Shown piece after piece: positions 3,796 through 20,397 of a DNA stretch of 64,000 bases. The stretch comes from an uncultured Acidobacteriaceae bacterium (GTDB taxonomy: Bacteria > Acidobacteriota > Terriglobia > Terriglobales > Acidobacteriaceae): assembly GCA_963822015.1 (NCBI GenBank), contig CAWGGA010000029.1:30880-94879 (forward strand), read 5' to 3'. A program made the translations under genes and the position numbers. Within the stretch, counting starts at the first letter, position 1, and each line of letters starts with the position of its first letter. The notes below the pieces were generated by a model that worked only from the letters and a program-made list of their open reading frames with translations, did not search any database and was not told the origin of the DNA.

Positions 3796-4015
3796 TGGGT
3801 CAGTTTGCAAAGCGCATCGCTCAGGGGCTATTGATTCCTGCAAAAGAAATATCCTTGCACCGTCCCTACGGGACTCCGGGGCTGACGTATGGAATTCGCT
3901 TTCCCCACGCTGAAGCGCGGGGCTAACAAACACTGCGCCTCCGGCGCGCTCGACAGGACACTGACTTATACTGAAGCCCGCACCCTTCAAGGGTGATTCA
4001 AACTGACCCACGACC
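3792..4015. mobile_element. Non-autonomous MITE-like element (TIR GTAGTGGGTCAGTTTG) containing REP-like hairpins
   Basis: GTAGTGGGTCAGTTTG at 3792-3807 and CAAACTGACCCACGAC at 3999-4014 (1 mismatch); direct repeat GAAATCAT at 3784-3791 and 4016-4023. Confidence 0.8.
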
Positions 4016-14456: not shown

Positions 14457-14678
14457 GGTTGCTACAGTATAGATGCAATTGGGATTGTTGCAAGCGAGGC
14501 GCTGGCCCCATTTGCCGTGGATACGCGAACACTACAACACAAAAAGAAAACAAGTTCACTACTCCCGACGCGGTTCATCTAGCTGATTCCCGCAGGTTCA
14601 TTTCTGGATGCTTTATCCACCGGGGAAGGCATATTCTGATGCTGTTTGGTTCTACCATTGAAGAATGAGGGACGCAGC

Positions 14679-15659
14679 ATGACAAACGAACAATCGAGAT
14701 CGCGAAGATTGGCGAGCATCGCCTTCGGGACTGCCCTTACTCAGCAGGCACAAGTAGCAAACGAAAGCAAAACTGTTGGGCACCTTCCCCTAAAGGACCA
14801 TACTATCGACCGGCTTATCGGCAATTTCGAGGAAGCTTCGCATGTCGATGAGGAGGGTATCGAGTTCTGGTTTGCCCGTGACCTTCAGAAACTATTGGGG
14901 TATGCAGACTGGCGGAATTTCCTAGCGGTTATCGCCAAAGCCAAAGAAGCATGCCAAAATTCCGGACAGGCTATCGAGAACCATTTCGTTGACGTCAACG
15001 AAATGGTTGACCTGGGTTCTGGCGCTGAACGAGAGATTGGGAATATTAGACTTACGCGATATGCTAGCTACCTTGTCGCGCAAAACGGCGATTCGCGTAA
15101 AAAGGAAATATCGTTCGCCCAGACTTATCTTGCCATTCAGACCCGAAGACAGGAAATTAAGGACGATAACGTTCATCAGTACGTCCCTCTGTCGGAAGAT
15201 CACAAACGGCTTCTCTTGAGAGACGAGATTAAGGAACACAAGAAGAACCTCGCAAGCGCAGCCAAAGGGGCGGGAGTTCTCGAACCATTGGATTTTGCTA
15301 TCTTTCAGACCTTCGGATACAAGGGCCTTTATGGGGGACTGGATCGGCCCGGTATTCAACGTCGTAAAGGGTTAAGGTCGAAGGACAATATCCTCGATCA
15401 CATGGGAAGCACGGAACTTGCCGCCAACCTCTTCCGGGCGACTCAAACCGAGGACAAACTTAGACGCGAGAAAACGAAGGGAAAAGACGCCGCAAATGCG
15501 GCCCATTTTGAAGTGGGTCAGAAGGTGCGTAGCGCCATCAGAGAGATTGGCGGAACGATGCCGGAGAACCTTCCTAAAGCGGAAAACATCATCAAGGTTG
15601 CGAAACGACTCAAAGTAGCTGCCGTCAACGTGATTGATTCAAACTCTACATCTTCCTAA
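14679..15659 (+). CDS. dinD: DNA damage-inducible protein D (BRO-N-like domain)
   Basis: EFWFARDLQKLLGYADWRNF, LTRYASYLVAQNGD, AQTYLAIQTRRQE, GYKGLYGG, ILDHMGSTELAANLFRATQ, IGGTMPENLP; visibly lower GC than flanks. Confidence 0.92.
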   Translation: MTNEQSRSRRLASIAFGTALTQQAQVANESKTVGHLPLKDHTIDRLIGNFEEASHVDEEGIEFWFARDLQKLLGYADWRNFLAVIAKAKEACQNSGQAIENHFVDVNEMVDLGSGAEREIGNIRLTRYASYLVAQNGDSRKKEISFAQTYLAIQTRRQEIKDDNVHQYVPLSEDHKRLLLRDEIKEHKKNLASAAKGAGVLEPLDFAIFQTFGYKGLYGGLDRPGIQRRKGLRSKDNILDHMGSTELAANLFRATQTEDKLRREKTKGKDAANAAHFEVGQKVRSAIREIGGTMPENLPKAENIIKVAKRLKVAAVNVIDSNSTSS

Positions 15660-15669
15660 AGCTGTTTCC

Positions 15670-15720
15670 TAAGAGCCAAAGGCCGCCAGTGAAGGCGGCC
15701 TAGGCGAGAGCAGCTCTTAA
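15670..15720. terminator. Stem-loop between convergent dinD and the tRNA-like gene (possible bidirectional terminator)
   Basis: AGGCCGCC-agtgaa-GGCGGCCT at 15680-15701, nested in TAAGAGC...GCTCTTA; no strong U-tract. Confidence 0.45.
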
Positions 15721-15726
15721 ACTTGA

Positions 15727-15822
15727 TGGTGGAATTGGCGGGACTCGAACCGCAACCTCTGCTTTACTGTAATCCGCCCTCAGATGCAGGGCAGCGCTCT
15801 AATCCAATTGAGCTACAACTCC
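15727..15822 (-). tRNA. tRNA-like gene with an abnormal, enlarged anticodon arm (identity unassignable; possibly pseudo-tRNA or tRNA-like ncRNA)
   Basis: Minus strand: GGAGTTG/CAATTCC acceptor stem + ACCA, TA-GCTC...GAGC D arm, GGTTCGAGTCC T loop; 26 nt where a 7-nt anticodon loop should be. Confidence 0.75.
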
Positions 15823-16040
15823 ACTGTGTCTAATCTGCCACACTTTGCTTGGGTTTGTTAAAGGCACAATGTCGAGCAGACTTTCCATTTTTTCTGAGTT
15901 AATTTGAGCGAGCAAAAGCTAGCCGAGCAGGTTGCGGCTTCGTCCTGAGATTTGTGGGAAATGCGCCGCGCAAATGCTGCTAGAATTCTGCTTTCCGGCT
16001 CATCGCGCCGAAGCAGATTTCCCAACAGAAAGCCCGGGCC

Positions 16041-19585: not shown

Positions 19586-19725
19586 TCTGGTAGACTTCTC
19601 CTTGAGCCTACGAGGGATGGATGTGGCTCTAGGAACTCCGGATTCCGTGAGATCCAAGGTGGGGCTTATTGCCTTCAAACCTCATCTAACGGATGGAAGC
19701 TATCAGCCGATGTGCTGAGGAGACC

Positions 19726-19944
19726 ATGGAAAAGAAAGTAAAATCAGATTTTCTCTTTGCGCAACCTTCCTTTGCGTCGGGTGCTGCTCGGGCTCTCGAT
19801 CTGTGGGGAGTGTTGGACGACTACAATATCAGTTCTACAACTCTTGAGGCGGACGAGAAGGCCATTGCCGCGGATTGGATTATCGTAGGCCAAGACCTCT
19901 CTGATGCCATGGGGCAAGATGAGTCAGAATTAAAGGTCGCTTGA
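19726..19944 (+). CDS. Small acidic hypothetical protein (72 aa) of the type found upstream of DUF2335 genes
   Basis: GAGGAG RBS; PSFASGAARALDLWG...AIAADWIIVGQDL; 3 nt before the next gene. Confidence 0.75.
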   Translation: MEKKVKSDFLFAQPSFASGAARALDLWGVLDDYNISSTTLEADEKAIAADWIIVGQDLSDAMGQDESELKVA

Positions 19945-19947
19945 TTT

Positions 19948-20397
19948 GTGAGCAAGAAGCACCGTCAAAGAGAGCAAGCTGCACCTCCGCCGCCTAATTC
20001 CGCGCTCGCAACGCTCACCCATCAGTCGCTTTCGTTCTCTGGTCCGCTCCCACCTCCTGGGCTTCTTGCCAAATATAACGAAGTAATCCCGAATGGCGCA
20101 GAGCGAATCGTAGCGATGGCAGAGCGCCAGAGCACCCATCGTGAATCCTTAGAAGCCCAGGTCGTCGCTGGGAACGTAGCTAGTCAGAAAAGGGGCTCGA
20201 TTTTCGCCTTCATTATTTGTCTCGTCGCGCTTATCGGGGGCTTTGCGCTTCTTTTTACGGGCAGAAATGTAGACGGCTTGGTCGCAATTATCTCTAGTCT
20301 AACGGCACTCGCCGGCGTCTTTGTGTATGGCAGATACAAGCAGGGAAAAGAACGCGTAGGCAAGGCAGATGCCCTTGCCACACGACGGCGGAATTAG
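19948..20397 (+). CDS. DUF2335 family membrane protein
   Basis: FSGPLPPP..LAKYNEVIPNGAERIVAMAERQ..HR signature followed by two TM helices. Confidence 0.88.
   Translation: MSKKHRQREQAAPPPPNSALATLTHQSLSFSGPLPPPGLLAKYNEVIPNGAERIVAMAERQSTHRESLEAQVVAGNVASQKRGSIFAFIICLVALIGGFALLFTGRNVDGLVAIISSLTALAGVFVYGRYKQGKERVGKADALATRRRN

Follow-up and report, generated by a model that had tools for sequence, protein, structure and literature searches.

A family of tRNA-shaped RNAs with a trailer-complementary anticodon-loop module, found mostly with IS1595-family ends in probable acidobacterial hosts

A tRNA-shaped RNA gene with an anticodon loop of 26 nt lies just inside the remnant of an IS1595-family element in the window, a stretch of 64,000 nucleotides from the genome of an uncultured Acidobacteriaceae bacterium (here G000). 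Comparison with six homologous genes makes it very probable that the gene belongs to a small, real and previously unrecognised RNA family, in which a module within the anticodon loop is complementary to the trailer of the same transcript. The seven members (the window copy, G175, G202, G394, L170, G126 and G115) appear to be hosted by acidobacteria, including a Terracidiphilus sp. and a Terriglobia bacterium. The window copy is probably a weakened member, in which the promoter, the U-tract and the helix are all weaker and from which the transposase and any PIN partner have been lost. The coordinates of its parts are given in Table 1. The first-pass annotation of this DNA mentions neither the IS1595 end nor the internal promoter, and neither the terminator nor the complementarity between loop and trailer.

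Table 1. Parts of the RNA gene and of its surroundings in the window
Feature	Position	Strand	Remarks
tRNA-shaped RNA	15727..15822	-	7/5 acceptor/T branch, A73, encoded CCA, G4.U69
Anticodon loop, 26 nt	15764..15789	-	unpaired in the family consensus
Inserted module, 19 nt (family 19-22 nt)	15767..15785	-	5' boundary is the common AT(C/T) start; 3' boundary set to leave 7 nt (putative)
Module core, trailer-complementary	15774..15782	-	9-bp run with 15705-15713, G.U pairs included
3' trailer	15701..15726	-	TTTAAG motif at 15716-15721, then the module-complementary strand
Terminator-type hairpin	15681..15700	-	common to the family; U-tract weaker in the window copy
Sigma-70-type promoter, decayed	15832..15861	-	-35 TTAACA (within the inverted repeat), -10 CAGATT
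Right terminal inverted repeat, remnant of an IS1595-family element	15851..15874	-	transposase and left end not in the window
Host target site, remnant of an HTH-gene promoter	15875..15886	-	29 purM-upstream loci of relatives; flanks of IS ends
DinD-like gene	14646..15659	+	convergent with the RNA; BRO-N domain; PADLOC candidate PDC-S13

The first-pass annotation had described a tRNA-like RNA with an insert-bearing anticodon region, and its sequence and parse were found as described, with a 7-bp acceptor stem, the wobble pair and A73, the encoded CCA and the 26-nt region. ARAGORN, whose use it had proposed, and Rfam both call a tRNA. The ARAGORN label is tRNA-Cys(GCA) at 15728-15823, and the score with RF00005 is 41.9 bits, where 29 is the cut-off; no Rfam family other than tRNA, whether antitoxin or intron, matches at this region. 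The D arm and anticodon stem are tRNA-Asp-like, and the BLAST neighbours of the gene are tRNA-Asp genes. When folded alone, the 96-mer is no better than its shuffles (z = -1.3). Frameshifts abound in the G000 assembly (purM, hemL and others), so the possibility that the insert is an artefact needed to be ruled out. Contigs of three other runs from two studies (X3 and X4 of study P2, X5 of study P3) carry the insert ungapped, covering most or all of the RNA at a depth of 2-3, with record 5 of X4 reaching over 15691-15878; an assembly error is thereby set aside. In X3 and X4 one additional base at 15749 gives a T stem of 5 bp, which fits the earlier guess that the T stem is short because of a homopolymer error. 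X3, X4 and X5 all differ from the window at 15763, where a C-G pair replaces the C31.A39 mismatch and the anticodon stem has five pairs. As the stem defects of the window are mended in the other runs, the cloverleaf is taken to be intact in nature, with an anticodon loop of 26 nt.

Six homologues were found by three routes. In three IS copies (G175, G202 and G394) a tRNA-shaped gene occupies the position that it has in the window. A pattern scan across GTDB returned 47 loci, among which L170, from a Terriglobia bacterium genome where this transposase is absent, was new, and L161 has an RNA identical to one already counted and was not recounted; the 45 others were rejected as allo-tRNA(UAU)-type genes, mis-parsed ordinary tRNAs and one archaeal intron tRNA. 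A covariance model (R1) trained on these five members and searched over 110 genus genomes and G000 found two new members, G126 at 110 bits and G115 at 61 bits. The next 17 matches fetched, of which the best scored 47 bits, are by eye ordinary tRNAs. R1 rewards the module-trailer helix described below, so that G126 and G115 are only a partly independent test of that helix. The module core of G115 has a wholly different sequence and is still paired with its trailer at 8 of 8 positions.

Other searches returned matches of other kinds or none. BLAST of the window RNA against 41 relatives returned tRNA-Asp genes and fragments only. In three of these relatives (L014, L016 and L017) the fragments are 5' halves of tRNA-Asp broken at the anticodon loop, as is typical when an element integrates at tRNA-Asp and replaces the 5' half. 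In metagenomes, a search for Asp-like bodies that bear an insert yielded 16 loci, which are by sequence all archaeal-type intron-bearing tRNA-Thr. The scans of viral sequences gave six ordinary phage tRNAs, 23 non-member loci and one ordinary tRNA, and no match to the insert, inverted-repeat, terminator and trailer patterns. In 400 genomes of the family and 400 of the class the terminator and trailer patterns matched in G000 only; these patterns are strict, and the trailer pattern missed both members found by R1. Among 110 relatives of the genome that holds L170, two of which are flagged as unpublished and carry no part of the argument, only short T-arm matches were seen, and BLAST against plasmids gave no match.

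The seven members share an encoded CCA, an anticodon loop of 26-29 nt, a 7/5 branch and a module of 19-22 nt, which is of related sequence, starts with AT(C/T) and has no common internal fold. By eye, their tRNA bodies differ and resemble different tRNA types. RNAalifold, run with no structure supplied, returns a full cloverleaf, an unpaired long loop and the terminator hairpin. In the acceptor and T stems 100% of the alignment cells pair, and double-sided changes occur at 5 of 7 and 2 of 5 pairs, respectively. The variable loop has 4-5 nt, and additional bases sit inside the anticodon stem. A73 is found in six members, G2-C71 in all seven and G3.U70 in three, the window copy having A3-U70 and G4.U69 instead. 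The D and T loops are degenerate in one member, as is expected if function on the ribosome is not needed. A sigma-70-type promoter on the RNA strand and a terminator were called in five of the six homologues, L170 being the exception; at the window copy the same scan called neither. The two mutually exclusive folds that had been drawn for the insert, an extended arm and a hairpin with a 7-nt loop, are possible on paper and are kept in no homologue, the loop being unpaired in the consensus. The comparison of homologues proposed at that time did reveal covariation in the cloverleaf and in the module-trailer pairing, but the fold of the long arm is not conserved.

The module core is complementary to the trailer between the CCA and the terminator. 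In an unedited MAFFT alignment, in which one member is one column off register, the 11-pair module-trailer helix is paired in 76.6% of cells and 8 of its 11 pairs are changed on both sides. For the structure as a whole, none of 500 column shuffles reached the observed scores, and slid registers were 37-54% paired, figures to be read with the caution that kinship inflates such tests. When each trailer was shuffled 2000 times, shuffles as good as the native trailer numbered 1, 4, 4, 1, 47 and 5 in the six homologues and 409 in the window copy, so that six of the seven members are better than shuffled trailers and the window copy is not; its duplex is also missing from the predicted fold. None of 27 ordinary G000 tRNAs reached the 1% level in the same duplex test, and for five of the seven loops their own trailer is the best partner. 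By eye, a similar short motif (ATYAAG or TTTAAG) stands ahead of both strands of the helix. In 401 genus genomes the trailer motif matched six times, in four family members and at two sites without a tRNA, and never behind an ordinary tRNA. The helix and the acceptor stem cross. When whole transcripts are folded with nested pairs only, the helix takes the place of the acceptor stem in four members and does not form in three; the crossing helix may thus be a pseudoknot or an alternative state.

The window RNA gene begins 28 bases inside the IS1595-family right inverted repeat, and the repeat itself provides an inward-pointing -35 box. The features that define this IS family, as taken from the accessible part of PMC8101967, are terminal inverted repeats, an 8-bp target duplication and a zinc-finger DDE transposase. 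The 24-bp terminal-repeat motif was found in 26 of 401 genus genomes. The sister elements measure 2.0-3.7 kb, with identical 8-bp flanking duplications in all ten two-ended copies tested, and the three sister-copy transposases tested match NF033547 above its cut-off. In G000 there is a single such end, which splits the remnant of an HTH-gene promoter; three distant IS1595-like genes lie on other contigs, and the DDE transposase is absent from the window copy. The window shares its inverted repeat with IS1595 elements that carry passenger genes, whose complete sister copies have the 8-bp duplication and the zinc-finger DDE transposase, and differs from them in having one end only and no transposase. 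What it keeps are the right end, the RNA gene and the convergent DinD-like gene. Among the family members, a right end of this kind is clear in four of seven, a variant end is present in one, an end is recognisable by eye in one and none was found in one. Complete elements of 3-4 kb with the RNA, an OB-fold protein and a PIN protein are found in G175, G202 and G394. Upstream of purM, 29 relatives have an HTH gene, hemL or other DNA, and no such RNA. A tRNA-like passenger driven from the inverted repeat was not found in the IS1595 literature searched. As regards insertion sites, the subfamily appears to insert beside promoter -35 boxes, and most of 29 ends have TGTCAA-like or GGAAAG-like flanks; these flanks (L077-L106, and 15875-15886 of the window) stand at a constant distance from the 8-bp duplication. 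Many IS copies share one target, the HTH-gene promoter between purM and hemL, and differ in cargo.

Four of the seven members lie head-to-head with a gene pair encoding an OB-fold protein and a predicted PIN-domain nuclease, and the others face an HNH-type, a SIR2-STAND or a DinD-like gene. The OB-fold partner has 260-290 aa and belongs to no Pfam family. In the predicted model of one such protein (pLDDT 94) the C-terminal OB fold is about as close to SSB and MCM domains as to anticodon-binding domains (Z 8-9.7), and because of this tie tRNA binding is not demonstrated by the fold. Neither the OB-fold nor the PIN proteins have a PADLOC match. Among IS copies with the OB-fold and PIN genes, 5 of 8 carry a tRNA-shaped gene (three long-loop and two normal-loop with odd bodies), and among transposase-bearing copies without the pair 0 of 6 do, counts that are not independent because the members are kin. 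No PIN gene was found near three members (the window copy, L170 within 36 kb and G115 within 14 kb). With three of seven members PIN-less and three of eight elements with the pair RNA-less, neither part requires the other. In the window, the DinD-like gene occupies the position of the OB-fold and PIN, HNH or SIR2-STAND genes of the homologues and may have been part of the same element as the RNA. It lies in a patch of low GC, where many relatives have HTH and membrane genes instead, and it contains a 30-bp palindrome at about 14979-15008. The partner of the PIN protein (L108:1499-2368 and relatives) represents a large unnamed family, with 1268 representatives at E <= 0.001, an OB fold at the C-terminus and a match in neither Pfam nor PADLOC; the pair is a candidate for an uncharacterised toxin-antitoxin or defence pair. 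Two sister IS copies with the pair carry the normal-loop tRNAs (L111:965-1037 and L110:3187-3259), one of which has a GUU anticodon without G73 and the other a CGU anticodon, an Arg-like D loop and no CCA. These may be module-free relatives of the family or mis-decoding tRNAs.

A loop of 26-29 nt cannot serve as an anticodon loop, and hence the RNA would either act unspliced or have its module excised. EndA (PF01974) was found in none of five host genomes and RtcB (PF01139) in partial form in one of them, all five being drafts and G000 72% complete; this would favour an unspliced RNA. The explanation that we prefer, tentatively and at somewhat less than an even chance, is that of an unspliced, trailer-locked tRNA mimic that would serve as a nuclease decoy, with the window holding a partly decayed copy. 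A promoter in the IS end would drive a transcript of about 150 nt, which would form a cloverleaf with an open long loop, and the trailer would pair with this loop as a crossing helix of 8-11 bp that masks it. A tRNA-recognising nuclease would be bound by the tRNA body and be unable to cut the masked, oversized loop, and the RNA would titrate the nuclease for as long as transcription continues. Exchange of bodies between tRNA types would fit the RNA to different nuclease specificities. VapC PIN proteins cut tRNA, and the neighbouring PIN proteins are assumed by analogy to do so too. A decoy would explain why the neighbours are nucleases, why the gene has a strong promoter of its own, why the bodies change and why promoter, U-tract and helix have decayed in the PIN-less window copy. 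The three PIN-less members and the three elements with OB-fold and PIN genes and no RNA are poorly explained by it. The window duplex, no better than chance, counts against it, and the competition of the helix with the acceptor stem in four members points to possible alternative states and not one knot. If the RNA is a decoy, it would add an RNA layer to the contest over tRNA that sets PIN or other anticodon nucleases against hosts or phages.

Splicing fits the neat 7-nt residual loops and the seven anticodons at least as well as the decoy does. On this account, which we consider unlikely overall, the module is a new type of bacterial mini-intron with the trailer as its built-in guide, and the ligated product would be a conditional toxin in the form of a mis-decoding tRNA; the module-trailer pairing would offer a roughly two-fold symmetric substrate to a dimeric nuclease, e.g., a PIN protein, and sealing might be done only by a phage RNA-repair ligase. 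Excision of the module, counted from AT(C/T), leaves all seven members with a loop of 7 nt that has U33 and A37-A38, and the resulting anticodons are all different (GCU, GAU, CUU, UGU, UAU, UUC and GCA). For the window copy the product reads GCU and not GCA, so that the earlier Cys(GCA) reading is not supported by the family boundary. G3.U70 and A73 form the alanine identity set, and they occur together in three of the seven under non-Ala anticodons. The similar motif that heads both strands of the helix also speaks for splicing, and active mis-decoding allo-tRNAs near acidobacterial toxin-antitoxin genes are described in the accessible text of PMC5389517. Against this stand the choice of the module length so as to leave 7 nt, when 2-8 of 8 split points yield U33 and a purine at 37 anyway, and the shifting position of the module in the loop, which is after position 4 in five members, after 1 in one and after 0 in one. 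The 3' boundary lies by eye 4 or 5 nt beyond the helix, at no constant distance. In a strict 3-4-3 test a canonical BHB has no placement in six of the seven and one placement in L224, and the scarcity of EndA and RtcB in the draft genomes is a further difficulty. The 2014 review PMC4090602, in its accessible part, denies protein-spliced tRNA introns to eubacteria, and a spliced member would be an intron of that very kind. The account in its most specific form is still less probable than its core: a third way to interrupt a bacterial tRNA, by a mini-intron of 20 bases with trailer-marked cuts, which a transposon nuclease would excise and a ligase (possibly one of phage repair) would seal, the product being a mis-decoding booby-trap against phages.

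The remaining explanations dispense with either the decoy or the intron. The module and trailer could be the two inverted ends of a very small DNA cassette, one that has hopped into cargo tRNA genes, the complementarity being a feature of the DNA and the genes themselves dead or dying. They do flank the 3' half of the tRNA as inverted repeats, the module is found at three different places in the loop, normal-loop tRNAs occur in sister elements and the window copy is decayed. The 5' and 3' halves of the tRNA are nevertheless fully complementary in the seven members, with double-sided changes; the non-Watson-Crick pairs of the helix are frequently G.U, a change that is neutral in RNA alone; five of six homologues have kept promoter and terminator intact; and the trailer motif stands behind no ordinary tRNA in the 401 genus genomes. 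We regard the cassette as quite improbable. Of similarly low probability is a role in which the RNA, freed of its trailer, would be charged, mostly with alanine, in the manner of tmRNA and its tRNA-like domain, and would then pass the amino acid on off the ribosome or occupy EF-Tu or a synthetase, with the trailer controlling maturation. The CCA in 7/7, A73 in 6/7, G2-C71 in 7/7 and G3.U70 in 3/7 speak for it, as does a trailer pairing able to open the acceptor stem in four members; but G3.U70 is missing from four of the seven, the window copy included, no aminoacyl-transfer enzyme was seen beside any member, and the variety of bodies is left unexplained. That the gene is the scar of a single integration event, a chimeric pseudogene or an error of assembly is scarcely credible. 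The assembly is indeed rich in frameshifts, and tRNA-Asp is an integration site in the genus, with the 5'-half fragments at three loci. The insert is nevertheless present in independent contigs, six covarying homologues retain the cloverleaf, 5 of 7 acceptor pairs having changed on both sides, and intact tRNA-Asp and tRNA-Cys genes stand elsewhere in G000. Among the options of the first-pass annotation, a non-decoding mimic and a mini-intron thus still lead, and the integration scar is dropped.

The family matched no Rfam family but tRNA, and gene finders call such genes ordinary tRNAs or miss them. The cloverleaf and CCA are shared with canonical decoding tRNAs (RF00005), and the 7-nt anticodon loop of the latter is absent in all seven members. 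A tRNA paired between loop and trailer was found described nowhere in the literature searched, where most subscription papers lay outside reach. The nearest published kind, of other structure, are the irregular acidobacterial tRNAs of Mukai 2017 (PMC5389517), whose accessible text reports allo-tRNAs and irregular polycistronic tRNA0/1/2 near acidobacterial toxin-antitoxin genes, some of them inactive in translation. According to that text, hosts from soil and peat, toxin-antitoxin or transposon neighbours and a mismatch of body and anticodon are common to both groups, and some of those tRNAs too are proposed to act outside translation. They have an 8/4 or 9/3 branch, a long variable arm or extra loop and, among the rows listed, anticodon loops of ordinary size, whereas in the present family the branch is 7/5, the variable loop is short, the anticodon loop has 26-29 nt and the trailer is complementary to the module. 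Five short family motifs had no match in the accessible supplement text of PMC5389517, and the accessible part of a review on allo-tRNAs (PMC7609411) holds nothing closer to the family. The present RNAs offer a handle on a question left by Mukai 2017, why odd tRNAs are found at acidobacterial toxin-antitoxin loci. Archaeal intron-containing tRNAs, for which the accessible part of PMC4090602 gives the BHB rule of splice sites, likewise are intact but for a short insert (here 19-22 nt) within their anticodon loop. The family departs from them in the lack of a canonical BHB in six of seven members and of EndA in all five hosts, and in an insert that pairs with the trailer and not with the anticodon. 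The long self-splicing core of a group I intron is absent, the insert having just 19-22 nt and no Rfam intron match. Type III toxin-antitoxin RNAs (ToxI, with the toxin ToxN) are tandem repeats co-transcribed with the toxin, and VapBC toxins are PIN nucleases. A promoter and terminator of its own, a predicted ribonuclease neighbour and a crossing helix liken the family to these systems, but it is a single tRNA-shaped unit, convergent with its neighbour, with PIN instead of the ToxN fold and no Rfam antitoxin match. The tRNA-like domain of tmRNA and YrlA-type Y RNA are non-decoding tRNA mimics; G3.U70 is shared with tmRNA in three of the seven members, and the family differs from both in its complete D arm and anticodon stem and in having no tag reading frame.

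A number of minor observations were made in the course of these searches. Many phage and bacterial loci (L127-L149 and L151-L197, e.g., L128:2001-2089 and L131:2001-2088) are allo-tRNA(UAU)-type genes with two hairpins between the D and T arms. One hairpin has a UAU loop, and the loop of the second resembles the anticodon loop of tRNA-Ile(GAU); possibly one arm is for IleRS and one for AUA. Such genes are classed as five-stem junctions in PMC5389517, in whose accessible text a reading of the second hairpin as an anticodon was not found. In the window itself, two small convergent ORFs, one of them DUF2335, lie at 19693-20397 in DNA of AT-richer look, between a holin-like ORF and a serine-protease gene. 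At 3903-3948 the window also holds a match to the Acido-Lenti-1 RNA (RF01687), over the gathering score.
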